Positions 9,712 to 35,079 of a stretch of 64,000 bases of DNA are shown one piece after another. Made by a program: the position numbers and the translations under genes. The notes below the pieces were generated by a model. The model saw only the letters and a list, made by a program, of their open reading frames with translations, had not been told where the DNA came from and made no database searches. How positions within the stretch are numbered: the stretch's first letter is position 1; the number at the start of each line of letters is the position of its first letter. Source of the stretch: an uncultured Actinomycetota bacterium (lineage in GTDB: Bacteria > Actinomycetota > Actinomycetes > Mycobacteriales > CAVVZQ01); contig CAVVZQ010000008.1 of assembly GCA_963752715.1 (NCBI GenBank), positions 49,524 to 113,523 of the forward strand, given 5' to 3'.

Positions 9712-10854
9712 ATGAGCGGCGGCATCATCTCGGCGATCGTCCGCAAGGACCTGGCCGCCTTCCGCGCCGACCGGTTCTTCATGCTGATGACCCTGCTCGG
9801 GATCATCCTGTACCCGGTGTTCTTCTGGCTGCTGCCCAGCTCGGTGGACGAGACGATTCGGCTGGGGGTGACTCCTCCCGCGACCCAGCAGGCCCTGCAG
9901 GGGCTACAGGGGTCGGATGGCGCTCAGGGCGCGGAGGGAGCTGAGGGGGCAGAGGGGGCAGAGGGGCTGGAGAGCAGTACCCAGGGCCTCGAGTTCGTGG
10001 CCTACCCCGACGAGACCTCGCTGGCCACGGCGGTGGAGCAGGGGGAGGACGGCGTGGTCGCCGGCATGGCCTTCCCCGCCGACTTCGCCGAGGCTGCCGC
10101 CGCGGGGCGGGAGACGACGGTGACGCTGTACGTGACGGCGGACCTGCCCCCCGAGGTGGAGTCCATGCTCACGGGGCTGGTCTCCGAGATCGGGTACCTC
10201 GCAGCAGGGCAGCCGCCCCCGGTGGACCCGATGACCGCGACCACGGTGCTGGGGGAGGACCGGATCGGCGATCAGGTGACCCTGCGCGAGCAGCTGCGAC
10301 CGCTGATCGCCTTCTTCGTCCTGATCGTGGAGACGTTCGCGCTGGCGTCACTGGTCGCCAATGAGGTTCAGCAGCGTACGGTTCAGGCCGTCCTCGTCAC
10401 TCCGGCCAGCAGCCGGGACTTCATCGCCGCCAAGGGCGTGACCGGGACCTCGCTCGCGTTCGCCGAGGCGGTGCTCATCATGCTGCTCATCGGCGGCTTC
10501 GCGGTGGGCGCACCGATCCTGCTGGTTGCGCTGCTGCTGGGTGCGGTGCTGGTGACCGGTTTCGGGCTGCTCTCCGGGGCCTTCGGCAAGGACTTCATCA
10601 CGGTCCTGTTCATCTCGATGCTGTTCATGATCCCGCTCATGGTGCCGGCGTTCGCGGCCCTGTTCCCGGGGACGCCTGCGGGCTGGATCAGGGCCTTGCC
10701 GAGCTACGGCCTGGTGGACACGATTGTGGCAGTGACGACGCAGAGTGCCGGGTGGGCGGAGGTGGCTCCGTCGTTGCTGGCCCTCGCCGTGTGGTGCCTG
10801 GCGATCTTCGCGGCGGGTGCGGCCGTCCTGTCGTGGAGGGTGGCGAGGCTGTGA
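9712..10854 (+). CDS. ABC-2 transporter permease with a large extracytoplasmic loop
   Basis: ATG at 9712, 5 nt after the ATPase stop. N-terminal TM, loop containing GAQGAEGAEGAEGAEG, then five C-terminal TM helices. Confidence 0.8.
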   Translation: MSGGIISAIVRKDLAAFRADRFFMLMTLLGIILYPVFFWLLPSSVDETIRLGVTPPATQQALQGLQGSDGAQGAEGAEGAEGAEGLESSTQGLEFVAYPDETSLATAVEQGEDGVVAGMAFPADFAEAAAAGRETTVTLYVTADLPPEVESMLTGLVSEIGYLAAGQPPPVDPMTATTVLGEDRIGDQVTLREQLRPLIAFFVLIVETFALASLVANEVQQRTVQAVLVTPASSRDFIAAKGVTGTSLAFAEAVLIMLLIGGFAVGAPILLVALLLGAVLVTGFGLLSGAFGKDFITVLFISMLFMIPLMVPAFAALFPGTPAGWIRALPSYGLVDTIVAVTTQSAGWAEVAPSLLALAVWCLAIFAAGAAVLSWRVARL

Positions 10855-22810: not shown

Positions 22811-24118
22811 ATGGGATCGCTCGACCACATCCCCGGGACGCTGGGACTCCCGCTGATCGGCCAGACGGTCCCGTTCCTGCGGGACGCGCGCACGATGGTG
22901 GCCGAGCGGCACCGTGAGTACGGCGACGTCGCGAAGGGACGGGCGCTGGGCCAGACCGCGGTGACCTTCGTGTCGCCCGAGGCCACCAAGCAGATCTACC
23001 TGGACCCCGACCGGATCTTCTCCTCCGAGATCGGCTGGTCGTTCACCATCGGTCCACTGTTCCAGCGGGGCCTGATGCTGCGCGACTTCGAGGACCACCG
23101 GGTGCACCGGCTCGCCATGGCCCATGCCTTCCGACGCGCCGCCCTGCAGGGCTACGTCCCGCGCATCCACGAGATCACACAGCAGCACGTGGCTCGGATG
23201 GGTACCGGAGCGGTGGACGTCTACGCCCTCGCCAAGGAGCTCACCCTCGACATCGCGGCCCAGGTTTTCGTCGGAACGACCATGCACGAGCAGGTCGCGA
23301 CCCTGAACCGGTGCTTCGTGCAGATGATGCGCGCCTCGATCAGCCCGCTCCGGCTCGACCTGCCCGGGCTGCCCTTCCGCAAGGGAATGGCGGCACGCCG
23401 GGAGCTCGTGGGCCTGTTCACCGAGCTGGTGAGGCAGCGGCGTGCCGAGCCGGAGGGCGAGGACCTGCTCTCCCGGCTGGCCCACGCACGCGTGGAGGAC
23501 GGCCGGCCGCTCGCGGTCGACGAGGTCGTCGATCACATGATCTTCCTTCTGCTGGCGGCGCATGACACCACGACGGCAACGCTGGCGGTCATGATGTGGA
23601 TGCTCGCTCGCCACCAGACCTGGCAGGACGCCGTCGTCGCGGAGATCGAAGCACTGGGCGGCGACCCGGTCACCCTGGACAACCAGGGCGAGCTGGTGGT
23701 GACCGAGCGGGTCTTCAAGGAGGCGCTGCGGATGAGCCCACCGGTCCCGTTCTCCCCGCGCGGGGTACTGGCGGACACCGAGATCGACGGGTGGGCGATC
23801 CCGGCCGGCACCATGGTCACCACCTGCAGCCTGGAGCTGCACCGGCACCCCGCCTACTGGTCGCACCCGAACTCCTTCGACCCGGACCGCTTCGCGCCCC
23901 ACCGCGCCGAGGACAAGCAGCACTCGCACCTGTTCATCCCCTTCGGCGGGGGAGCGCACCTGTGCCTGGGCAACCACTTCGCGGAGCTGGTCGCCAAGGC
24001 CGCGATGGCGGGAGTGCTCACCAGCCACCGGCTGGAGGACGTGCCGGGACGTCAGGTGTTCATCCAGTCCGTGCCGATCCCCAAGCCGCGGGGCGGACTG
24101 GTCCTGACGGTCCGGTGA
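22811..24118 (+). CDS. Cytochrome P450
   Basis: Heme loop FIPFGGGAHLCLGNHFA and I-helix LLLAAHDTT. GGAG lies 6 nt before ATG 22811. Confidence 0.9.
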   Translation: MGSLDHIPGTLGLPLIGQTVPFLRDARTMVAERHREYGDVAKGRALGQTAVTFVSPEATKQIYLDPDRIFSSEIGWSFTIGPLFQRGLMLRDFEDHRVHRLAMAHAFRRAALQGYVPRIHEITQQHVARMGTGAVDVYALAKELTLDIAAQVFVGTTMHEQVATLNRCFVQMMRASISPLRLDLPGLPFRKGMAARRELVGLFTELVRQRRAEPEGEDLLSRLAHARVEDGRPLAVDEVVDHMIFLLLAAHDTTTATLAVMMWMLARHQTWQDAVVAEIEALGGDPVTLDNQGELVVTERVFKEALRMSPPVPFSPRGVLADTEIDGWAIPAGTMVTTCSLELHRHPAYWSHPNSFDPDRFAPHRAEDKQHSHLFIPFGGGAHLCLGNHFAELVAKAAMAGVLTSHRLEDVPGRQVFIQSVPIPKPRGGLVLTVR

Positions 24119-26649
24119 GCCCCCAGCCGCCGGCTCCGGAGGACCTGCTGGAGGAGTACGCCGCCCAGCAGGCCGAGCAGGGCCGCTCGCTCTACCCGGC
24201 TCAGGAGGACGCGCTCCTCGAGCTCGCCACCGGGGCGCACGTGATCCTGGCGACTCCGACGGGCTCCGGGAAGAGCCTGGTCGCGACCGGAGCGATGCAC
24301 TTCGCACTCGCCCAGGGACGCCGTACCTTCTACACCGCGCCCATCAAGGCGCTGGTGTCCGAGAAGTTCTTCGAGCTGTGCGGGGTGTTCGGGGCGGACC
24401 AGGTCGGGATGGTCACCGGGGACGCCGCCGTGAACGACCAGGCACCGATCATCTGCGCGACCGCCGAGATCCTGGCGATGAAGGCGCTGCGGGAGGGCTC
24501 CGCCGCGGATGTCGACGTGGTGTGCATGGACGAGTTCCACTACTACGCCGACCGGGACCGCGGGTGGGCCTGGCAGGTGCCGCTGATCGAGCTGACGGAT
24601 GCGCAGTTCCTGCTGATGTCGGCCACCCTGGGCGACGTCCGGCGGTTCGCCGAGGACCTCGAGCGCCGCACCGGGCGGCCCGCCGCCGTCGTGGCGTCCG
24701 GGGAGCGGCCGGTGCCGCTGCACTTCGAGTACGCCCTCACGCCGATCCACGAGACGCTCGCCGACCTCCTGACAGCCGGCTCGGCGCCGGTCTACGTGGT
24801 CCATGCGACCCAGGCCGCCGCGCTGGAGCGGGCCCAAGCGCTCACCAGCGTCGCCGTCTGCACCCGCGCGGAGAAGGACGCTATCGCCGAGGCCATCGGG
24901 GACTTCCGGTTCACCGCCGGCTTCGGCAGGACGCTCAGCCGGCTGGTGCGGCACGGGATCGGAGTCCATCACGCCGGGATGCTGCCGCGCTACCGGCGTC
25001 TGGTCGAGCAGCTCACCCAGGCGGGCCGGCTGAAGGTGGTGTGCGGGACCGACACCCTGGGGGTAGGGATCAATGTCCCCATCCGCACGGTCGTGATCAC
25101 GTCGCTGACCAAGTACGACGGACGGCGGGTACGGCTGCTGCGCGCCAGAGAGTTCCATCAGATCGCGGGCAGAGCCGGCCGGCCCGGCTACGACACCGAG
25201 GGCACGGTCGTCGTACAGGCTCCGGAGCACGAGATCGAGAACCAGCGGCTGCTGGCCCGTGCCGGGGACGACCCGAAGAAGCGGCGCCGCGTCGTCCGCA
25301 GGAAGCCGCCCGAGGGGGTGCCGAGCTGGAGCCAGGCGACGTACGAGCGGCTGGTCCACGCCGAGCCCGAGACGCTCACGTCCCGCTTCGACGTCAGCCA
25401 CGCGATGCTGCTCAGCGTCGCGCAGCGGCCCGGGGACGCCTTCAGCGCGATGTGGCACCTGCTCACCGACAACGACGAGGACCCGGCGGGTCAGGAACGG
25501 CTCATCCACCGGGCGTACGCGATCTACGGGGCGCTGGTGGCCGCCGACGTGCTCGAGCTGGTGGACCCGCCCGACGCCGACGGCCGCACCGTACGGGTGG
25601 TCGGCGACCTCCCGGAGGACTTCGCGCTGAACCAGCCGCTGTCCCCGTTCGCACTGGCTGCCTTGGAGCTGCTCGACGCCGAGTCCGACAGCTACGCCCT
25701 CGACGTGCTCTCCGTGCTGGAGGCCACGCTCGACGACCCCCGGTCGGTGCTGCTGGCTCAGCAGCACCGCGCCCGCGGCGAGGCGGTGGCGGCGATGAAG
25801 GCCGAGGGCATCGAGTACGAGGAGCGCATGGAGCTGCTGGAGGAGGTCACCTGGCCGCAGCCGCTGGCCGAGATGCTGGAGGCGGCGTACGAGATCTACT
25901 CCGACGGCCATCCCTGGGTGGGTGAGCACCCGCTCCGCCCCAAGTCGGTGGCCCGGGAGCTCTCCGAGCTGGCGATGACGTTCGTCGAGTACGTCGGCTA
26001 CCACCGGCTGTCCTCCTCCGAGGGCCAGGTGCTGCGCTACCTCGCGGATGCCTACCAGGCGCTGCGGCGGACGGTGCCGGACAGCCTGCGGACCGAGGCG
26101 CTCGACGACCTGACGGAGTGGCTGGGGGAGCTGGTCCGTCAGGTGGACTCCAGCCTGCTCGAGGAGTGGGAGCAGCTGCTGCACCCCGAGGCTTTCGCCG
26201 AGGCTGCGGCCGCCGGCCACCCGCCCGGTCACCGGGCCGAGCCGCCCCCGGTGACCGCGAACGCGCGGGCCTTCCGGGTGCTGGTCCGCAACGCGATGTT
26301 CCGCCGTGTGGAGCTGGCGGCGCTGCGGCGCTGGGACCAGCTGGGGGAGATGGACTCTGACGCGGGATGGGACGCGCAGCGCTGGCGGGCCGCCGGGGAT
26401 GCCTACTTCGCCGAGCACGCCGACCTCGGCACGGGTCCGGACGCCCGCGGCCCGCACCTGCTGCACATCGCCGAGCAGCCGGGACGCTGGGTGGTGCGGC
26501 AGGTATTCGACGACCCCGACGGCGACCACGACTGGGGGATCAGCGCGGTGGTGGACCTCGCTGCCAGTGACCGGCGCGGCGAGGCGGCCGTGGAGGTGAC
26601 TGCGGTGGACCGGCACGATGCCACCCCCGCCACACGCGTCACCTTCTAG
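24115..26649 (+). CDS. DEAD/DEAH-box helicase with a DUF3516-type C-terminal region
   Basis: GTG 24115 overlaps the P450 stop (GTGA). ATPTGSGKS, MDEFHY, LMSATLG, HHAGMLP. Confidence 0.85.
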   Translation: MSPQPPAPEDLLEEYAAQQAEQGRSLYPAQEDALLELATGAHVILATPTGSGKSLVATGAMHFALAQGRRTFYTAPIKALVSEKFFELCGVFGADQVGMVTGDAAVNDQAPIICATAEILAMKALREGSAADVDVVCMDEFHYYADRDRGWAWQVPLIELTDAQFLLMSATLGDVRRFAEDLERRTGRPAAVVASGERPVPLHFEYALTPIHETLADLLTAGSAPVYVVHATQAAALERAQALTSVAVCTRAEKDAIAEAIGDFRFTAGFGRTLSRLVRHGIGVHHAGMLPRYRRLVEQLTQAGRLKVVCGTDTLGVGINVPIRTVVITSLTKYDGRRVRLLRAREFHQIAGRAGRPGYDTEGTVVVQAPEHEIENQRLLARAGDDPKKRRRVVRRKPPEGVPSWSQATYERLVHAEPETLTSRFDVSHAMLLSVAQRPGDAFSAMWHLLTDNDEDPAGQERLIHRAYAIYGALVAADVLELVDPPDADGRTVRVVGDLPEDFALNQPLSPFALAALELLDAESDSYALDVLSVLEATLDDPRSVLLAQQHRARGEAVAAMKAEGIEYEERMELLEEVTWPQPLAEMLEAAYEIYSDGHPWVGEHPLRPKSVARELSELAMTFVEYVGYHRLSSSEGQVLRYLADAYQALRRTVPDSLRTEALDDLTEWLGELVRQVDSSLLEEWEQLLHPEAFAEAAAAGHPPGHRAEPPPVTANARAFRVLVRNAMFRRVELAALRRWDQLGEMDSDAGWDAQRWRAAGDAYFAEHADLGTGPDARGPHLLHIAEQPGRWVVRQVFDDPDGDHDWGISAVVDLAASDRRGEAAVEVTAVDRHDATPATRVTF

Positions 26650-26658
26650 GCTCGGGGT

Positions 26659-27279
26659 GTGGCCCGGTACTTCGACGTCCATCCGCGTGACCCGCAGCCG
26701 CGATCTGTCGCCCAGGTCGCGGCGATGCTGCGTGAGGGTGCGGTGATCGCCTACCCGACGGACTCCTGCTACGCGCTGGGCTGCCTGCTGGACAACCGCG
26801 AGGGCGCGGCACGCATCCGACGCATCCGCGGACTGGACGAGCGGCACCACTTCACGCTGGTCTGCGACTCCTTCGCGCAGCTCGGGCAGTTCGTCCAGCT
26901 CGACAACACCGAGTTCCGGGCGGTCAAGGCTGCCACCCCTGGCGCGTACACGTTCATCCTGCCTGCCACCCGCGAGGTGCCGCGTCGGCTGGCACATCCG
27001 AAGAAGCGCACGGTCGGAGTGCGGATTCCCGACCACCCCTTCGTACGGGCACTGGTGCGTGAGCTGGGGGAGCCGCTGCTGTCCACCACCCTGCTGCTGC
27101 CCGGTGAGCAGGAGCCGATGACCGAGGGCTGGGAGATCAAGGAGCGCCTGGACAAGGTTGTCGACGCGGTGGTGGACGCGGGCTCCTGCGGCATCGAGCC
27201 GACCACCGTCGTGGACTGGTCGGAGGGCGTCCCCGAGATCACCCGGGTGGGCGCGGGCGACCCGGCACGCTTCGAGTGA
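26659..27279 (+). CDS. yciO: Sua5/YciO/YrdC family protein, YciO-like
   Basis: Appears alignable by eye along its length with my recollection of E. coli YciO: AYPTDSCYALGC, HHFTLVC, TPGAYTFILPATREVPRRL, RTVGVRIPDHP, LGEPLLSTTLLLPGE. Confidence 0.8.
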   Translation: MARYFDVHPRDPQPRSVAQVAAMLREGAVIAYPTDSCYALGCLLDNREGAARIRRIRGLDERHHFTLVCDSFAQLGQFVQLDNTEFRAVKAATPGAYTFILPATREVPRRLAHPKKRTVGVRIPDHPFVRALVRELGEPLLSTTLLLPGEQEPMTEGWEIKERLDKVVDAVVDAGSCGIEPTTVVDWSEGVPEITRVGAGDPARFE

Positions 27280-27312
27280 GGCCTGGTCGCGGTACAGGTC
27301 AAGGGCGGGTCG

Positions 27313-27760
27313 GTGTGGCACGACGGCGCCCGGTGGCTGCAGGCGTGGTCGGAGCAGGGCCAGCGTCGGATCGACCCGGTCGGTCAGGAGTTCGACCTGC
27401 CGGACTGCCCGCGCCACATGGTGGTCGATCGCAGTCAGCTGACGTCCGTCGCCTCCGGCCTGCGGGAGACGGCCGAGCTGCAGGGGCAGGGCTACCGACC
27501 GCCCGACAGCCAGGACGTGGACCTGCTGGCCGAGATCATGCGGGGCCGCGGCCTACCCCAGCGTGACGTGGTTGCGCTGGCGCTGGACCGTGAGACGCGG
27601 GGGGATCTCCTGACCGCGGAGCAGGCCAACGTGCTCGGGGCGACCAGACTGCTGCGTCGGGTAGAGGTGCGGGGCGGTGCCGGCAGCGGCAAGACGTGGC
27701 TCGCGGTGGAACAGGCACGTCGCCTCGCCCGCGACGGCGAGCGGGTGGCCCTGACCGGGC
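27313..27760 (+). pseudogene. N-terminal relic of a UvrD-like P-loop helicase/ATPase
   Basis: LTAEQANVLGATRLLRRVEVRGGAGSGKTWLAVEQARRLARDGERVAL (Walker A). Meaningful sequence stops about 27757. The rest of track ORF 27313..27894 is Arg-rich read-through into the antitoxin region. Confidence 0.65.
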
Positions 27761-27791
27761 TTCTGAGGCGCGAGGATCGAGCTCGTTCTCA

Positions 27792-27820
27792 TGTACAAGA
27801 AGGGCGATGGGTTGTACGCT
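27792..27820 (+). promoter_or_regulatory. Putative TA operator/promoter: TGTACA core, inverted repeat GTACAA-N13-TTGTAC, and a -10-like TACGCT
   Basis: Read directly. TACGCT (27815-27820) lies 6 nt before ATG 27827, consistent with a leaderless antitoxin transcript. Confidence 0.5.
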
Positions 27821-27826
27821 TTCAGC

Positions 27827-28075
27827 ATGGTCGTGATGAGCGTGAGCGCGGCGCGGGAGCAGCTGGCCGAAGCCGTCGAGCAGGCCGGCCGTGAGGCCGT
27901 CGTGATCGAACGGTACGGCCGGGCAGCCGCCGTGATGATCAGCCCTGCCCGCTACGAAGAACTGATGGACGCGCTGGAAGAGGTCGAGGACATCGCCGCT
28001 TTCGATGAGGCGATGGCCGAGGAGGGGCCCAACATCCCCTGGGAGCAGGTCAAGGCCGACCTCGGGTGGCAGTAG
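27827..28075 (+). CDS. Phd/YefM family type II antitoxin
   Basis: MSVSAAREQLAEAVEQAGREAVVIERYGRAAAVMISPARYEELMDALEEVEDIAAFDEA. Alternative starts at 27791 and 27836. Confidence 0.85.
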   Translation: MVVMSVSAAREQLAEAVEQAGREAVVIERYGRAAAVMISPARYEELMDALEEVEDIAAFDEAMAEEGPNIPWEQVKADLGWQ

Positions 28076-28332
28076 CCCGTTACCGGGTCGAGCTGCGCCC
28101 GGCAGCCGTCCGGGCGCTGCGGAAGATCGACCCGCAGATGCGCGAGCGGATCCAGGGCGCGATCGCGCTGCTGGCCTCCGATCCTCGACCGCCGGCGTCG
28201 CGCCAGCTCAAGGGACGTCCAGGCCGGCGAGTGCGAGTCGGGGACTACCGGCTCATCTACACCATCGCCGACGACGTGCTACTGATCGTGGTCGTCACCA
28301 TCGGACACCGCCGCGAGGTCTACGACCGCTAG
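28066..28332 (+). CDS. relE: RelE/ParE family type II toxin
   Basis: GTG 28066 overlaps the antitoxin end by 10 nt. LKGRPGRRVRVGDYRLIYTIADDVLLIVVVTIGHRREVY. Confidence 0.85.
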   Translation: MAVARYRVELRPAAVRALRKIDPQMRERIQGAIALLASDPRPPASRQLKGRPGRRVRVGDYRLIYTIADDVLLIVVVTIGHRREVYDR

Positions 28333-28446
28333 CCCCCGACAGATCCATCCATGCCCGCCCCTGCCGAGTTGAGGGCGGATCTCCAGGCCACGAGCCGGCT
28401 TGCTGAACAGCTGCCGACCGATCGAAGGGTGCTGAACACTGGTTGC

Positions 28447-28815
28447 ATGTCTCGGCGGCCGCGAGGGGTCTGGGTGGTGAGCGTGGGTCTTGCGCTGGTC
28501 GCTGTCGGGGCGCTGGCTGTCGGGGTGCTGATGACGTTCGTCTCGGGACTCACGCCGCCGACTGATCCGCTGTTCGCGATCGTCGGGCTGGCCGTGGCGG
28601 CGAGCTGTCTGGTGGCGGCGGTGGGGGTGTGGACGCGGCGGCTGCGCCGGGCGGTAGTCCTGGCCCTGGCTGGGACGGCTCCGCTGGCGTGCCTGCTGGG
28701 GCTCTGGGAATCGACGGACTTCGAGGCCCTCACGATCATGGCAGTCCTGGGCTGGGCGGCACTGGTGCTGGTCCTGCGCCGACCGGCACCGGCGGCGTGG
28801 GTGGCCGGCGACTAG
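28447..28815 (+). CDS. Hypothetical membrane protein (4 TM)
   Basis: ATG 28447 within track ORF 28351..28815. Hydrophobic helices and coding-like GC3. Confidence 0.55.
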   Translation: MSRRPRGVWVVSVGLALVAVGALAVGVLMTFVSGLTPPTDPLFAIVGLAVAASCLVAAVGVWTRRLRRAVVLALAGTAPLACLLGLWESTDFEALTIMAVLGWAALVLVLRRPAPAAWVAGD

Positions 28816-28907
28816 CCAGCGCGGACGGTCCGGTGAGACCCTCGCCCCTGCCCCACGACGCGCGACCGCGAGGCGACACGAGACAAGGCCAGCAGGCTAC
28901 GGGTGGT

Positions 28908-29132
28908 CTAGCGGGTGAACAGGCGGAAGGACAGGTAGCCCAGGCCGACCGCGCCGAGGCCCGCGAAGATCCCGAGGAACACGATTGCCAGGCCCCAGAA
29001 CTGCAGGGACTGGTCGGGCTGCCCGCGCCGACCGATCAACGCCTCGACCACGTACCAGCCCAGCGCCCAGATCGCGAACACCGCAAGGACCGCGGCCCCG
29101 GCCGCAGCCAGCACCGCTGCGATGCGCCCCAC
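28908..29132 (-). CDS. Small hypothetical membrane protein (2 TM, 74 aa)
   Basis: Two hydrophobic helices, and GC3 near saturation in this frame. Confidence 0.55.
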   Translation of the reverse strand: MGRIAAVLAAAGAAVLAVFAIWALGWYVVEALIGRRGQPDQSLQFWGLAIVFLGIFAGLGAVGLGYLSFRLFTR

Positions 29133-29498
29133 GCGGCCAGGCTAGGCGGCGGCGCGGGCTGAACATCCTCACCTGCGATGAGGACGTTCTTCGACTTCCC
29201 GGATCGGGAGGGCCCGGCCGCTTCCACCACTCCGGTGTCGACGTCACCGGACAGGGACTCCCGACGCCTGCGCGGCGGACTCGCCGCTGAGCGGAGTGTG
29301 GCCTATGCGGGCACGGATGTGCACGCCACCGTCATGACCACCGAGTAGCAGACGCCCACTCCAGGTCGCCCCGGCCCTCCGGTTCGAGGTGCCAGTAGCC
29401 GTACTGGGCCGTGCGATTCGGCGCCGCGCCGCGGCTGGTGAACAGTACGGTGAGGGGAACCGCGGTGCTGGTGTGCGGCTCGCCCGAGGAGGTCAGTG

Positions 29499-31373
29499 AT
29501 GACTGCTTCTGCTCACACGTCGTCGGCGAACCAGGCGCTGCTGGGGGTGCTGCCGTTCGAGGACGAGTCTGACTTCGCCGATGCGCGGCGGGGGTTCATC
29601 GCCGACACCCCGCACCGGGTGATCACGAACCCGGACGGCAGCCCGTCGTTCGACCTGGACGCGTACGAGTTCGTGCGGGACGCCCCGGCTCCGGACACGG
29701 TGAACCCGAGCCTGTGGCGGCAGTGCCAGCTGCTGGGCATCACGGGGCTGTTCGAGGTGGTGGACGGGATCTACCAGGTGCGCAACGTCGACCTGGCGGT
29801 GATGTCGTTCATCCGCGGGCAGACCGGGTGGATCGTGGTGGACCCGCTCGTGACCGCGGCGCCGGCGGCGGAGGCGTTGCGGCTGCTGCGCGAGCACGTA
29901 GCGGACCTGCCGGTGAGCGCGGTGCTGTCCACGCACTCGCACGCGGACCATTTCGGTGGGATCGAGGGGGTGGCCGACCGGGCCGACGTGGAGGCGGCAC
30001 GGGTGCGGTACGTGGTGCCGGCCGGTTTCGTGGAGGAGTCGGTGTCGGAGAACGTGCTGGCCGGCAACGTGATGGCTCGCCGTGCGTCGTACATGTACGG
30101 CAACGCCGTCCCCCCGGGGCCGGAGGGGGCGGTGGGGGCCGGGCTGGGTCCGTCGACGAGCACCGGGTCGATGGCGCTATACCCGCCGACCGACATCGTC
30201 GACCACACCGGGCAGGAGCTCGACATCGACGGGGTGCGGTTCATCTTCCAGCACACCCCGGGTGCGGAGGCCCCGGCGGAGTACTGCTTCTACCTGCCCG
30301 ACCAGGCCGCGTTGTGCATGGCCGAGATCGCCTCCCACACCCTGCACAACGTCTACACCCTGCGTGGGGCGAAGATGCGGGACGCGCTGACGTGGTCCAA
30401 GCACATCCACGAGGCGTTGCGGCTGTTCGGCGACCGAGCGCAGGTGCTGTTCGCCTCGCACCACTGGCCCACCTGGGGCAACGAGGCACTGCGCGCCCAG
30501 CTGGTCGGGCAACGCGACCTGTACCGGTACCTGCACGACCAGACGCTGCGGCTGGCCAACCACGGTCACGGCCCGAGCGAGATCGCCGAGATGATCGAGC
30601 TGCCCGCCGGCATCGCGGGTCGGTTCGCCAACCGCGGCTACTACGGCAGCGTCAACCACAACGTCAAGGCCGTCTACAACTACTACCTGGGCTGGTTCGA
30701 CGCCAACCCGGCGAACCTGCACCCGCTGCCGCCCGAACCGGCCGGGCGCAAGTTCGTCGAGTACGCCGGCGGCGCCGAGGCGCTGCTGGCGCGGGCCCGC
30801 GCCGACTTCGAGGCCGGGGACTACCGGTGGGTGGCCGAGGCGGTCAACCACCTCGTGTTCGCCGACCCGGACAACGCCGACGCGAAGACCCTGCTGGCCG
30901 ACACGTACGAGCAGCTGGCGTACCAGGCCGAGTCGGGGCCGTGGCGCAACTTCTACCTCGCCGGCGCCACCGAGCTGCGGCACGGCATCCGCCCCGTGGC
31001 GACACCGAACGCCGCCCAACCAGGCATGGTGTCCTCGATGCCGGTCGCCACCGTCCTCGACGCCCTCGCCGTGCGCCTGGACGGGTCCGCCGTCGCCGAC
31101 GTGCACGCCACCATCGGATTCGCCGTCGACGACGACACCCACACCCTGGAGCTGTCCAACGGCACCCTGCACCACCACCCCGGCACCGACCCGAACACGG
31201 CAGCGACCATCCGGATGACCCGCGCGGCGCTGGACGCCATGGTCATGGGACACGACCTCCAGCAACTCGTCGCCGACGGCTCGATCACCCTCGACGGCGA
31301 CCTGTCCGCCGTCCAGGCGCTGCTGGCCAACCTCGACACCTTCGAGTTCTGGTTCCCCATCGTCACCCCGTGA
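29499..31373 (+). CDS. Alkyl/aryl-sulfatase, MBL fold (SdsA1/BDS1-like) with an SCP2-like C-terminus
   Basis: AGGAGG lies 5 nt before ATG 29499. THSHADHFGG, a dimerisation region, and a C-terminal DTFEFWFPIVTP. Confidence 0.85.
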   Translation: MTASAHTSSANQALLGVLPFEDESDFADARRGFIADTPHRVITNPDGSPSFDLDAYEFVRDAPAPDTVNPSLWRQCQLLGITGLFEVVDGIYQVRNVDLAVMSFIRGQTGWIVVDPLVTAAPAAEALRLLREHVADLPVSAVLSTHSHADHFGGIEGVADRADVEAARVRYVVPAGFVEESVSENVLAGNVMARRASYMYGNAVPPGPEGAVGAGLGPSTSTGSMALYPPTDIVDHTGQELDIDGVRFIFQHTPGAEAPAEYCFYLPDQAALCMAEIASHTLHNVYTLRGAKMRDALTWSKHIHEALRLFGDRAQVLFASHHWPTWGNEALRAQLVGQRDLYRYLHDQTLRLANHGHGPSEIAEMIELPAGIAGRFANRGYYGSVNHNVKAVYNYYLGWFDANPANLHPLPPEPAGRKFVEYAGGAEALLARARADFEAGDYRWVAEAVNHLVFADPDNADAKTLLADTYEQLAYQAESGPWRNFYLAGATELRHGIRPVATPNAAQPGMVSSMPVATVLDALAVRLDGSAVADVHATIGFAVDDDTHTLELSNGTLHHHPGTDPNTAATIRMTRAALDAMVMGHDLQQLVADGSITLDGDLSAVQALLANLDTFEFWFPIVTP

Positions 31374-32077
31374 CCGCGAACTCGGGCCAGGGCCGCGGCG
31401 CGCCTGAGTCGGGGTGGCGGCGACACGCGACCTCGATCGAGGTGGCCGCGGTGGCCGGCCTGGTGAGCGGAGTCGGGTGGATCGTCTCGCTGCGCGGCCT
31501 GCTGGCCGGTCCCGGCCTGGACGCCACCCGCGCAGAGATCGCGACCTTCTACACCGCCCCCGGAGCGGCCGGGCCCACCGGCGTCTACCTCGTCGTGCTG
31601 GTGGTCTCGACGCTGGCGTTCCTGTGGTTCGTCGGCGTGGTGCGCAGCCGACTGGGCCCGGCGGAGAGCCCGATGGTGGGCACCGTGTTCCTCGGCGGCT
31701 CGGTGGTGATGGCCGGGCTGCTGCTCGTCGGCGCCGCCGCCGTGGCCGCGCCGGCATTCCTGCTCGACGCCGGCGGCCAGGTCCCTGACCCGGGGGCCGC
31801 CCAGCTGGCCCGGGCCTTCGGCCTGATCATCCTGGTGGTGTTCACCCCCCGGGTGGCCACGCTCATCATGTTCACCTCGGCGACGCTGAGCCGGCAGGCC
31901 CGCGCGCTGCCGGGGTGGATGATCGTGCTCACCTACCTGGTCGGAGTGGTGGAGTTCGTCACCGTCACCGTCGCCGAACCCGTCCTCTACGTCTTCCCCG
32001 CCTGGGTCACGCTGGCGTCCACCGTGCTGCTCCCGCGCCACGACCGGATACCCACGCGGGGCTCAGCGCACACCTGA
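31370..32077 (+). CDS. Hypothetical membrane protein (about 6 TM)
   Basis: GTG 31370 overlaps the sulfatase stop (GTGA). Hydrophobic throughout. Confidence 0.55.
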   Translation: MTANSGQGRGAPESGWRRHATSIEVAAVAGLVSGVGWIVSLRGLLAGPGLDATRAEIATFYTAPGAAGPTGVYLVVLVVSTLAFLWFVGVVRSRLGPAESPMVGTVFLGGSVVMAGLLLVGAAAVAAPAFLLDAGGQVPDPGAAQLARAFGLIILVVFTPRVATLIMFTSATLSRQARALPGWMIVLTYLVGVVEFVTVTVAEPVLYVFPAWVTLASTVLLPRHDRIPTRGSAHT

Positions 32078-32130
32078 CACCGTGACAGCGCAGACGCACA
32101 CTGCGCGCGCCGCGCCACCGGGGAGACGGG

Positions 32131-33402
32131 TCAGCCTGAGGCGTCGTCGGGTGGGTGGTCGGCGACCCAGCGCTGCGCGTCCCGATAGGCCCGCAGCAGC
32201 GTCGCACCGACCCGCTCGTCCCCGGGGTAGACACTCGACGAGCCGATCACCTCGGTCACCCCGGTCGCGGCCAGCTGCTCGCGGATGCGTTCGCCGGCCG
32301 AGACGATCACCAGCCTCGAACCGACCTGGTCCAGCGCCTGGGCGTAGCGCAGCAGGACGTCCATGAACGTCGTCCCCAGGTCCGTCCGGCCCCGCAGGCG
32401 CAGGATCACCACCGACCGAGCCGAGCGGTCGGTGACCACCGGGAGGGCCTTCTCGAACACCGGTGCGGCGGCGAAGAACAGGCTGCCGTAAGGCTGCAGC
32501 ACCACCACCTGCGACCCGGGGAGCTCGGCGGGCGGGTCGACCTCGACCGGGTGGGCATCGTCATCGTAGACCCGGCGCCTGATGCGGATCTGGTTGGACT
32601 GACGGACCACGTACAGCACCACCGACAGGGCCACCCCGGCCAGGACCGCGTACTGAAGCGGGATGAGCATCGTCAGCACGAACGTGACGACCAGCACCGC
32701 CTTCTGCACGTTCCCGGTCCGCCACACCGACTGCAGGTTCGCCAGGAATCAGGATCAGCAGCCGGCGCGCCGCAGCCGGGCCGCTACGGCGGCCGAGGAC
32801 GTCGCCCGGCTGACCACCGGCACCCGGGTGCGCTGGAACGCCACGATGAGCCCGACCGTCACGACCCCGACCGCGACACTCGCCCAGCTCAGCGAACCCG
32901 GCGACAGCACCGTGTCGACCGCGCGCGTCACCCGGTTCGCGCCCGCCGCGTCGTACCCGGTCAGATTTCCCAGCTGCCCGAGCACGATGTTCACCCCCAC
33001 CGCGTTGATGAAGCCCACCATCACCGCGTTGGACACGAACCGCAGCACCGACCCGGCGCGCAGCAGCCCCGCCAGACCCATCACCACACCCGTGAGCACC
33101 GCCAGGGTGAACAACGCACGCCCGGAGTCCGACGCTCCGTGCACCGCCGGAACGTCGGAGATGATCATGGCCATCGCACCCGTGGCCGTGACGACCATGA
33201 ACGTCGACGAGGTCACCGCCGCCCCGGCCACGGCGCCGACCATGTACGCGTACAGACCGGCCAACGGGTTCACACCGGCCAGCAGGCCCGCCGCCAGCCC
33301 GTCCGGCACGCTCTGCACACCCAGCACCACACCCGCCACACCGTCACGGCGTGCCGTCCGCCACGGCGGCAGCACCCACCGCCCCCGCGACGTACCGCTC
33401 AC
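32131..33402 (-). pseudogene. SulP family anion transporter relic, central TM core deleted
   Basis: The N-terminal piece (track ORF 32755..33534) reads PPWRTARRDGVAGVVLGVQSVPDGLAAGLLAGVNP...IVAFQRTR. The C-terminal piece (32131..32727) reads WRTGNVQKAVLVVTFVLTML followed by a STAS domain. Only about 30 nt separate them, and they are in different frames. Confidence 0.7.
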
Positions 33403-33564
33403 AGCCGGCCCCGCCGTCGGATCACACCCGGAAGTATCACAGCCACACAGCACACACGGGCTCGGGAGCAGACAGCGGGACGACTCCGACACCAAGCGCC
33501 GCCACCCGCGCCAGCCTCGTCGGAATGTCCGCAAAGATCACCCGCATATCAAGCAGGTTCGTGA

Positions 33565-33879
33565 AACGGCGGTCGGCTCGCCCGGCGGGCTCGGGGTCAT
33601 CCCGAGCAGGCCGCCCGGCAGGAGTCCGGCCAGGATCTCTACTGGCAGTCCTTCTGGGACACCGAGCAGGTCTTCTACGGCCATGTGCTGGGCTTCAAGG
33701 GCATGGAGCGCCGCGCGGTGGTCCTCGCGCTGAACGAGAAGCGTCCGCGGGAGCGGGCTCGGGAGCGCCTGTATGTGGGAATGTCCCGGGCCCGTGACCA
33801 GCTCGTCGTGGTGGGCGACGAGGCGTACGTAGAACAGGTCGCCGGGCCGAGCGTGCTGCGCCGGCTCCGGGAGGGATAG
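33565..33879 (+). pseudogene. C-terminal relic of the UvrD-like helicase/ATPase
   Basis: The frame is open from 33565: YWQSFWDTEQVFYGHVLGFKGMERRAVVLALNEKRPRERARERLYVGMSRARDQLVVVGDEAYV (UvrD_C-type end). No plausible start or N-terminal domains. Confidence 0.65.
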
Positions 33880-33901
33880 CGTCGACGACAGGAGGTTCGT
33901 G

Positions 33902-34117
33902 ATGTCGGAGTCAGGCGGTGGCATCCAGTATCCCGGCCCGGACGAGGAGGAGCAGCTTCGCGCGGCGGCGGCGAGCGTCGGCAGCTACCCGTGGCCGGCG
34001 TGGATCACGTTGTGCTGGGGACTCGGCGTGGCCTTCCACTGGTGGGACGCCACCCGGCGGCCGATCACGCCGCAGGCAATCCAGCAGGAGATGGACCGGA
34101 TGAGGGGCAGGAAGTGA
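33902..34117 (+). CDS. Small 2TM-domain membrane protein
   Basis: AGGAGG at 33890-33895. WPAWITLCWGLGVAFHWW. Confidence 0.55.
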   Translation: MSESGGGIQYPGPDEEEQLRAAAASVGSYPWPAWITLCWGLGVAFHWWDATRRPITPQAIQQEMDRMRGRK

Positions 34118-35079
34118 AGGCGGTCGCCTACCACGCCTACGGCTCGCCGGATGTCCTCCACGTCGAGGAGGTGCCCGAGCCGGTGCCGGGTGAGCGCGAG
34201 GTGCTGGTGAGGGTGCGGGCCTCGGCGGTGAACTCCTGGGACTGGGAGTACGTCCAGGGCACGCCCTTCGTCAACCGCATCGGGGGGCTGCGCCATCCGA
34301 GGCACCCGATCCTCGGTGCCGACGTCGCGGGCACGGTCGAGGCGGTCGGGAAGAGTGTGGTCCGACTGCGGCCCGGGGATGCCGTCTTCGGGGACCTGTC
34401 CGGCTGTGGATGGGGTGGGTTCGCGGAGTACGTCTGCGCGGACGAGGATGCGCTGGCCCGCAAGCCGGACGGGGTCTCCTACGAGGCGGCGGCCGCGGTC
34501 CCGCAGGCGGGAGTGCTGGCGCTGCAGGCGCTGCGCGACGTCGCTCGGTTGCGCCCGGGGGAGCATGTGCTGGTCAACGGTGCCGGCGGTGGGGCCGGAA
34601 CTTTCGCCGTGGCGCTGGCGAACCTGCTGGGTGCCTCGGTGACGGGGGTGGACAGCGGCGAGAAGCAGGACCTGATGCGTTCGCTCGGGGTCGAGCGGGC
34701 CATGGACTACGCGCAGGAGGACTACACCCGTACCGGGGAGCGCTACGACGTGATTGTCGACATGCAGGCGTTTCGCAGGCCCTGGGACTACGCACGCGCG
34801 CTCCGTCCCGCCGGGCGGTTCGTGGCGGTGGGTGGCTCGGGGGCGACCCTGCTCGCCGTGGTCGCAGCCGCCCCGGTGGTCAGGCTGACCCAGGGCAAGC
34901 GACTGGCGCTGCTGCTGCACCGGCCCAAGCGCGCCGATCTCGAGTACCTCGGGGCGCTGCTGGAGGCCGGGGTCCTGTCCCCGGCCATCGACAGGCGCTT
35001 CGCGCTGGCGGACACGCCTCGGGCGGTCAGGTACTTCAGCGAAGGACACGCCAAGGGGAAGGTCGTCATCACCGTCTGA
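34114..35079 (+). CDS. Zinc-type NAD(P)-dependent alcohol dehydrogenase / quinone oxidoreductase (MDR family)
   Basis: GTG 34114 overlaps the preceding stop. VKAVAYHAYGSPDVLHVEEVPEP and VNGAGGGAGTFAV. Confidence 0.85.
   Translation: MKAVAYHAYGSPDVLHVEEVPEPVPGEREVLVRVRASAVNSWDWEYVQGTPFVNRIGGLRHPRHPILGADVAGTVEAVGKSVVRLRPGDAVFGDLSGCGWGGFAEYVCADEDALARKPDGVSYEAAAAVPQAGVLALQALRDVARLRPGEHVLVNGAGGGAGTFAVALANLLGASVTGVDSGEKQDLMRSLGVERAMDYAQEDYTRTGERYDVIVDMQAFRRPWDYARALRPAGRFVAVGGSGATLLAVVAAAPVVRLTQGKRLALLLHRPKRADLEYLGALLEAGVLSPAIDRRFALADTPRAVRYFSEGHAKGKVVITV

Follow-up and report, generated by a model that had tools for sequence, protein, structure and literature searches.

Organisation of the locus and its intact counterpart

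In the 64-kb window (the whole stretch analysed here, actinobacterial DNA of ~70% GC), the interval between a yciO gene and an alcohol dehydrogenase (ADH) gene was found to contain the relics of a UvrD-like helicase gene interrupted by a mosaic of other genes (Table 1). The genes listed between the relics by an earlier note on this DNA were all recovered, namely a PhdYeFM antitoxin gene, a ParE/RelE toxin gene, two membrane open reading frames (ORFs; mem1 and mem2), an alkylsulfatase gene, a third membrane ORF (mem3) and a SulP relic, the last in two pieces. The same note had proposed two same-strand helicase relics parted by one 5.8-kb block; the split was confirmed, and the simple two-junction insertion was not, as a third helicase piece of 40 nt and three deletions were found. 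That one ancestral gene left three relics around a mosaic insert is very nearly certain.

A scan of species-representative genomes gave 80 loci of the helicase family, on which both large relics were placed by tblastn. The two relics were found on the same strand of one gene, ~612 nt apart, in 79 of the 80 loci (the single exception was a contig ending early), and they were collinear with one intact gene on contig L084, which bears out their assignment to one gene of NERD plus superfamily 1 (SF1) helicase type. The 3′ relic shared 58-78% amino acid identity with the C-termini of the 79 family members. The full-length members, which come from Mycobacteriales, Propionibacteriales, Jiangellales and other groups, were found to contain 545-550 aa and to be 53-67% identical to the reference orthologue described below; their NERD domain is N-terminal, and the SF1 (UvrD-like) helicase follows it. 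Pfam NERD (E 7.6e-12, 3.6e-10 and 5.2e-10) plus UvrD_C_2 were matched in the intact orthologues. The PADLOC model RTasNERD-Hel (PDLC03813) was matched by intact orthologues with E 1.5e-37 and 4.9e-36 (positions 18-510 of 519 covered by L039), and the intact members also matched the PADLOC candidate C3a187 'NERD+UvrD'. No solved structure for the helicase was detectable by sequence; defence and DNA repair are both candidate functions of the NERD-helicase.

The neighbourhood of the family was not conserved in the genome loci. Neither yciO nor a DUF3516 (Lhr-like) helicase gene was found near the helicase in any of the 80 loci, and ADH-like genes were found in few loci and at low identity. A 2TM-domain gene lay beside the helicase in 0/80 loci, and the 2TM gene was rejected as a helicase partner for this reason. 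As the distant genomes lacked the yciO synteny, the synteny was taken from close metagenomic relatives. A homologue search with the 5′ relic gave only proteins of <=256 aa, many of them frameshifted, and no intact orthologue was obtained from that search. Many homologues of the helicase N-terminus (P0003, P0007, P0008, P0009, P0011 and P0016) were short and lost the frame a little past Walker A; a search bias to short proteins, errors of assembly or a family prone to decay may lie behind this.

The intact reference locus was built from two contigs, L081, holding a YciO 96% identical to that of the window, and L084, holding an ADH (P0160) 94% identical at the amino acid level to that of the window; they were joined over an 849-nt overlap in which they were 99.6% identical. 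The two contigs belong to samples ERZ27251446 and ERZ27251469. The order in L081 plus L084 was DUF3516 helicase, yciO, a spacer of 35 nt, an intact 548-aa NERD-helicase, 2TM gene, ADH, rhodanese and MBL-rhodanese, and the helicase-2TM-ADH-rhodanese-MBL/rhodanese order of L084 was the same as in the window. The yciO gene of the window was ~94.7% identical to that of L081 at the nucleotide level, and the window flanks as a whole were 93.5-94.7% identical to the two contigs. The cargo was wholly missing from this locus and the helicase was uninterrupted, so the helicase is ancestral at exactly this locus and the window is the derived, broken state. The comparison of the yciO-to-ADH interval and the search for an intact collinear orthologue, both proposed by the earlier note, thus show that the window lineage inherited a 548-aa NERD-nuclease and SF1 helicase between yciO and the 2TM/ADH operon, within the guessed ancestral size of 500-700 aa. 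The relics were not matched to different protein families or to non-adjacent genes, and both pieces were not found as intact independent genes in relatives, the two outcomes which that note had named as contrary to it. The 548-aa L084-type orthologue, with GAGSGKT at residue 231, DEAQD (Walker B) at 333 and GMSRARD at 516, was used as the reference for the codon and nucleotide numbering of the helicase pieces.

The 5′ relic frame (27283/27313-27756, +) encodes ...RVEVRGGAGSGKTWLAVEQARRLARDGERVALT and then runs on into unrelated sequence. It was 93.8-94.6% identical to L081/L084 at the nucleotide level, and the homology ended exactly at 27756 (codon 257); after ...RVALT the family reads CYSRGLA..., which places the break right behind Walker A. 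The homology of the toxin-antitoxin (TA) cassette begins at 27757, the first base beyond the helicase homology, so that the TA module lies exactly at the left junction, as had been claimed. The loss of the helicase middle and its replacement by non-helicase DNA also held: relative to L084, 553 nt covering codons 258-442, and with them Walker B DEAQD, were absent, and 5,031 nt of other DNA lay in their place. The third relic of 40 nt corresponds to L084 1354-1393 (90% identity, E 1e-8 by blastn), where the next-best chance matches reached <=30 bits, and the 3′ relic picks up the orthologue (1393/1394) precisely at its right end, L084 1393. The 3′ relic, a startless frame ...FYGHVLGFKGMERRAVVLALNE...LYVGMSRARDQLVVVGDEAYV, was 93.7% identical to L084 1393-1773 at the nucleotide level and matched Pfam UvrD_C_2 with E 1.4e-7, above the gathering score. 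Its description as a helicase C-terminus was right; its proposed start at 33565 was not, the true homology beginning at 33596. Walker A and motif VI of the helicase are kept in the window, Walker B is lost and the NERD domain is present only as a remnant (codons 57-94).

The layout is helicase, 5,031 nt ending in the SulP 3′ piece, 40-nt helicase, SulP 5′ piece and helicase, with order and orientation kept in both partners. The 769 nt (32827-33595) with the SulP 5′ part were found inserted between helicase reference nucleotides 1393 and 1394, and every helicase base is still present once.

The 5′ relic is itself damaged, lacking codons 1-56 and ~41 codons from about codon 94 to 134. At the first of these deletions the blastn segments L081 1-1496 and 1697-1808 meet with a 5-nt overlap and 2-4 nt of microhomology. 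At the second, L084 198-309 and 422-800 fall on overlapping window ranges, and the deletion ends carry the imperfect 11-nt direct repeat GGTC(G/C)G(T/C)CAGG. The third affects the 2TM gene, whose product contains 72 aa in the window vs 102 aa in L084 and scores 25.5 vs 60 bits on Pfam 2TM. The three deletions (205, 123 and 93 nt; 2-11 nt microhomology) fall within ~2.3 kb of ancestral sequence.

The relics were compared with the intact orthologue for the ratio of nonsynonymous to synonymous change (dN/dS), which was 0.17, vs 0.21 for the ADH gene and 0.14 for yciO, and no small indels and no stops were found in 768 nt of relic. As the ratio of the relics is like that of the neighbouring genes, the damage should be recent; by a rough estimate the neutral phase of the helicase took less than ~15% of the total divergence path. 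Many structural lesions with almost no neutral point changes point to a single burst or to events in quick succession. The helicase gene is now dead, and the SulP and probably the 2TM gene should also be non-functional.

Table 1. Features between and including the two synteny anchors, in window coordinates; codons follow the 548-aa reference orthologue and SulP residues the intact SulP of contig L098
Feature	Position	Strand	Content
yciO/TsaC-like L-threonylcarbamoyladenylate synthase gene	26659..27279	+	Left synteny anchor; Sua5_yciO_yrdC E 1e-45, TIGR00057 E 5e-52
Deletion 1 scar	27277..27281		205 nt lost: yciO-helicase spacer, start codon and NERD codons 1-56
Helicase 5′ relic	27283..27756	+	Codons 57-94 and ~131/135-257; NERD remnant VAVQVKGGSVWHDG, linker, Walker A GAGSGKT
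Deletion 2 scar	27378..27388		123 nt lost in frame: 41 codons of NERD domain and linker
TA cassette	27757..28377	+	Upstream region 27757-27826, Phd/YefM antitoxin gene 27827-28075, ParE/RelE toxin gene 28066-28332
mem1/mem2 module	28362..29172		Small membrane-protein genes: mem1 28447-28815 (+), mem2 28908-29132 (-)
Spacer	29173..29480		308 nt between mem module and alkylsulfatase gene
Alkylsulfatase gene	29481..31373	+	Apparently intact; 624 aa from ATG 29499
mem3	31370..32077	+	235-aa multi-pass membrane ORF; GTG start overlaps alkylsulfatase stop codon
SulP 3′ piece	32131..32742	-	Last transmembrane (TM) segments and STAS domain; residues 450-642
Filler	32743..32787		45 nt between SulP 3′ piece and 40-nt helicase relic; in-frame stops split the SulP frame
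Third helicase relic	32788..32826	+	40 nt, codons 442-455 (WRPEDVALLTTGAR), between both SulP pieces
SulP 5′ piece	32827..33595	-	Residues to ~284, and ~61 nt upstream of TTG/first start
Helicase 3′ relic	33596..33879	+	Codons 455-548 and stop, including motif VI (YVGMSRARDQLVVVG)
2TM-domain gene	33899..34117	+	93-nt in-frame deletion, scar 33975/33976; one of two TM helices removed
Zinc-type ADH/quinone reductase gene	34117..35079	+	Right synteny anchor; 94% aa identity to P0160 on L084

Upstream of yciO, the window was found to contain a DEAD-box helicase gene with a DUF3516 domain (24100-26649; E 1e-203). In blastn, L081 aligned with window positions 25804-27281, across the end of this gene and yciO, with one ~18-nt gap. 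An exact look-up of the 206-aa YciO gave no match, the called start being different. Translation of the 2TM gene and the ADH gene is coupled.

Relatives and origin of the inserted DNA

The TA cassette was found to contain the antitoxin gene first, followed by the toxin gene with an overlap of 10 nt. The antitoxin matched PhdYeFM_antitox PF02604 with E 1.7e-10 and 41 bits (cut-off 29.8) and the toxin matched ParE_toxin PF05016 with E 1.2e-13 and 51.9 bits (cut-off 23), and the pair is of type II by its adjacent, overlapping small genes with both family domains. An identical 82-aa antitoxin was found on 11 other contigs. Elsewhere the cassette occurred in at least three other contexts, namely recombinase-GNAT-TA-Fic, aldo-keto reductase-TA-CBAH, and TA upstream of MNT/HepT; the DNA identity was 88-93% by blastn and was confined to 27757-28377 or slightly less, the homology starting at 27757, 27768 or 27752. 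The cassette is accompanied by its upstream 70 nt, in which two GTAC motifs are invariant, and this pair recalls the operators with a TGTACA core in E. coli yefM-yoeB.

The mem1/mem2 module was 94% identical at the nucleotide level to that of L176-L179, where it lies inside a TA-rich island in a different arrangement; relative to these, 70 additional nt were present at 28823-28892, between mem1 and mem2. For the 308-nt spacer that follows, no significant match was found in the fetched loci or the window and no match in Rfam. The alkylsulfatase contained the Pfam domains Lactamase_B, Alkyl_sulf_dimr (E 1.6e-60) and Alkyl_sulf_C. Its gene was 96.5-96.8% identical at the nucleotide level to that of L175/L181 over 29481-31371 only, where the context was DUF429...ferredoxin-like Fer4, and 87.6% identical to that of L182, where a different SulP adjoins it. 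In all three contexts (L175, L181 and L182) the homology sets in 16-18 nt ahead of the start codon and stops a few bases at most from the stop codon, so tight a fit to the gene being unusual. Both the TA cassette and the alkylsulfatase gene appear undamaged, and they may still be functional. mem3 gave no Pfam match; mem3-like proteins (32-33% identity) adjoin the alkylsulfatase genes in L098 and L101.

The intact SulP of L098, 67-71% identical, was used as the reference for SulP residue numbering. The 3′ piece matched STAS (E 3.8e-10) and positions 383-559 of TIGR00815, with 67% tblastn identity in frame -2, and the 5′ piece matched positions 4-181 of 380 of Sulfate_transp (E 1e-24), with 71% tblastn identity in frame -2. 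The pieces were collinear and shared one frame, with 165 residues missing between them vs the L098 SulP; with partial Sulfate_transp plus STAS and stops in the filler, they constitute a relic and not a complete SulP. These 165 codons were lost internally despite the TA module in the same insert. A closer intact SulP donor was not found, L182 holding only a 32%-identical paralogue and L098 the 67-71% homologue, and no source match was obtained for the 45-nt filler or the 70-nt extra segment. Alkylsulfatase genes were repeatedly found beside SulP-family transporter genes (L098 1074-5572; L182 993-4809; window 29499-33534) in varying order and orientation, which suggests that alkylsulfatase and SulP, with the mem3-like gene, form a functional cluster for sulfate-ester utilisation.

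The TA cassette, the mem1/mem2 module and the alkylsulfatase gene were each found singly in other contexts of related metagenomic genomes at 88-97% identity, so the cargo does not stand as the single block that had been supposed. Nor did the proposed composition check mark it as foreign, as the GC content, the GC content at third codon positions (GC3) and the tetranucleotides were all inside the window's own range and indistinguishable from the flanks. Searches for plasmid or phage relatives of the cargo gave only distant alkylsulfatase matches (65-70%) and one weak phage RelE-like match, and no other contig in the searched collections carried the whole block, the 90% cluster of mem3 having one member. 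From the ordinary composition and the lack of close plasmid or phage kin we infer that the captured DNA came from the flexible gene pool of the same clade or from the same genome, not from a compositionally foreign donor.

Short repeats were also observed around the cassettes. The motif TGCCGATGAG occurs at window positions 28362-28385 and 29173-29190 and at about 9920-9935 and 10530-10545 of L085, and is seen again at the edges of cassettes, where it may serve as a common promoter/operator or be a recombination hotspot. A 62-nt repeat, 81% identical between its copies and containing a CGGCAT...ATGCCG hairpin, was found at 2253-2314 and 3984-4045 of L176, where it brackets HepT, mem2 and mem1; its second copy lies just upstream of another Phd/ParE pair in this TA-rich island. 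L085 7582-11911 (also L086 and L088) contains the gene of a 419-aa tyrosine recombinase in an integron-like layout.

Proposed break repair and the rival explanations

No recombinase or transposase was found among the cargo ORFs, every one of which was accounted for by other assignments, and the search for flanking direct or inverted repeats or a target duplication round the cargo gave chance-level matches only. The earlier observation that integrase, transposase and target-site duplication were missing therefore stands, and the 64-kb window contained no tRNA gene either; structured RNA families, promoters and terminators were not found in the search. The cargo had the marks of neither an integrase island nor a prophage nor a transposon of the insertion-sequence type. 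The marks of end-joining scars were present: junctions with little microhomology (0-1 nt at the helicase/TA junction), deletions, and filler or captured fragments.

The whole, mechanism included, is best explained by a gene broken through illegitimate break repair that captured a patchwork of DNA, to which a probability of about 0.6 is given. Illegitimate recombination repairing DNA breaks, in one burst or a rapid series, would have broken the helicase gene, and a mobile-element recombinase would have been uninvolved. The first candidate is Ku/LigD-type end joining capturing loose DNA fragments, and the second is microhomology-mediated template switching during repair synthesis. Template switching between the resident helicase and a donor would explain the kept order and orientation as well as end joining.

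Several points weigh against this explanation. The mechanism is read from scars only, the visible genome amounts to 64 kb with the Ku/LigD content of the host outside view, and the window as well as its relatives are metagenome assemblies in which the TA/mem1 junction is the only one confirmed by an independent contig. That junction lies inside a short motif common to both donor contexts (16-nt overlap), which hints at homology-assisted joining there at least. The gene-exact boundaries of the alkylsulfatase gene are not predicted by random break capture. Donors were not matched for 29173-29480, for mem3 and SulP or for the 45-nt filler, and the 5-kb left part could have been pre-assembled elsewhere and have arrived as one fragment, only the SulP/helicase interleaving being local.

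A stronger form, in which all nine junctions and deletions arose from one catastrophic repair event ('chromothripsis-like' shattering or a multi-template switch) that joined pieces of the resident helicase and of a SulP-bearing donor in turn and took in a TA cassette and further flexible-genome modules, is doubtful. If true, it would be a natural, datable case of break-repair-driven gene acquisition without mobile-element machinery. Its variant, in which TGCCGATGAG-type repeats mark a cassette-shuffling system so far undescribed in Actinobacteria, is less likely.

The insertion of a single pre-assembled foreign block (TA ... alkylsulfatase ... intact SulP), perhaps from a plasmid or island and held by its TA module, followed by ordinary pseudogene decay through small deletions and one local reshuffle, is an unlikely but serious rival. 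In its favour, the cargo forms one continuous stretch that ends on the left with the end of a TA cassette; the alkylsulfatase, mem3-like and SulP genes recur as neighbours (L098, L182), so part of the block may be a natural cluster, and the mosaic could record the history of the donor and not events at this locus. However, the helicase codons 442-455 between the SulP halves need at least 3 extra breakpoints, and with this alternating layout a single insertion plus simple deletions is insufficient. The relics, with a dN/dS of 0.17 and free of frameshifts, speak against a long decay, and an imported block is opposed by the lack of an integrase, att site, inverted repeats, target duplication and close plasmid or phage relative, together with its absence as a whole from every other contig and the one-member mem3 cluster.

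Considerably less probable is that the modules are cassettes of an integron-like or other site-specific shuffling system, joined via short conserved repeats. Such a system would account for the 25-nt direct repeats of the motif TGCCGATGAG..GGGC..TTC flanking the TA cassette in L091 (200-224 and 807-831), for the 62-nt direct repeat flanking a cassette group in L176, for the position of the window TA/mem1 junction in the TGCCGATGAG motif, and for the tyrosine recombinase gene that is divergent and upstream of the same-facing GNAT, TA and Fic genes in L085. The motif, however, is missing from the borders of the helicase pieces and the window shows no enrichment of it, the repeats lie 55-80 nt upstream of operon starts and may be a shared promoter/operator, the cargo genes occupy both strands, and the L085 recombinase reached 47 bits vs a cut-off of 265 on the integron-integrase model TIGR02249. 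An integron array was rejected, the L085 enzyme being a generic tyrosine recombinase and none being present in the window region.

A chimeric contig assembled from several related genomes is very improbable. The assembly is of metagenome type, the window proteins all lie on one 199-kb contig and every module has 88-97% identical relatives on other contigs. The junctions, however, lack shared repeats of k-mer length, and an independent 572-nt contig (L180, ENA ERZ3792523) was found to be 100% identical across the TA/mem1 junction. Two Logan run assemblies, of runs ERR12037369 and ERR15459714, contained an identical YciO with the next ORF 34 nt downstream, as in the window, whereas the distance in the intact allele is 35 nt. 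A chimera would also not yield microhomology-flanked in-frame deletions or a 40-nt piece ending where the next begins. Exact look-ups of the relic ORFs gave no other assembly on record that spans the helicase/TA junction.

A programmed excisable intervening element of the skin/sigK or comK prophage type, restoring the helicase on excision, would fit same-strand gene pieces split by an insert with a TA module and is nonetheless hardly conceivable, as the gene is not rebuildable (553 middle nt, codons 1-56 with the start, and 41 more codons are gone) and neither a recombinase nor flanking repeats were found.

Under break repair with capture, the locus adds one more case to a known kind of event: a gene was recently lost to illegitimate recombination, and a mosaic of flexible-genome modules was captured. 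Gene loss through insertion is routine. Recombinase-free gene gain is often invoked for bacteria with end-joining repair and is, to our knowledge, rarely documented in wild genomes. The near-identical relative with an intact locus makes every breakpoint readable to the base. A conserved NERD-helicase, kin of proteins accompanying defence reverse transcriptases, was dispensable in this lineage.

Comparison with known systems

The RTasNERD-Hel model represents the NERD-helicases that accompany some UG34 reverse transcriptases (Mestre et al. 2022, PMC9226505), and the intact orthologues of the present helicase were found to have the same architecture. They differ from the UG34/DRT system in that the window-type gene is adjoined by yciO and 2TM/ADH, with no neighbouring reverse transcriptase gene, and from the RTasNERD-Hel setting in being a single conserved gene across several orders, with any defence role putative. 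Membership in the DRT (UG34 reverse-transcriptase) defence was rejected, as no UG/Abi reverse transcriptase gene was adjacent in the close relative.

The TA pair resembles other type II cassettes, which are promiscuous small modules, in its overlapping genes and its several genomic contexts; unlike the cassettes of integron arrays it was not accompanied by an integron integrase, and its activity is putative. The same-strand helicase pieces parted by kilobases of unrelated DNA recall skin/sigK and the comK prophage, from which the locus differs in that the helicase cannot be reconstituted and a recombinase is lacking.

The closest likeness was found in experiments on non-homologous end joining (NHEJ). 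In Streptomyces ambofaciens, NHEJ at induced breaks inserted 30 bp-18.8 kb of genomic DNA, among it nearby sequence in pieces of 42 and 83 bp (PMC5869714), and NHEJ-dependent capture of heterologous fragments was described in Sinorhizobium meliloti (PMC6379672). The S. ambofaciens I-SceI and Sinorhizobium captures and the present locus share deletions at the break and unrelated inserts of tens of bp to many kb, short fillers from nearby, little or no microhomology, and the absence of a recombinase or target duplication. The present case differs from these experiments in being a natural event known from its scars, with several fragments and an alternating order of resident and captured DNA. The scars are a natural counterpart to the laboratory findings, in which actinobacterial repair is able to paste arbitrary DNA of 40 nt to kilobases with no integrase or transposase, and the pasted DNA here includes a working-looking TA pair and a metabolic gene.

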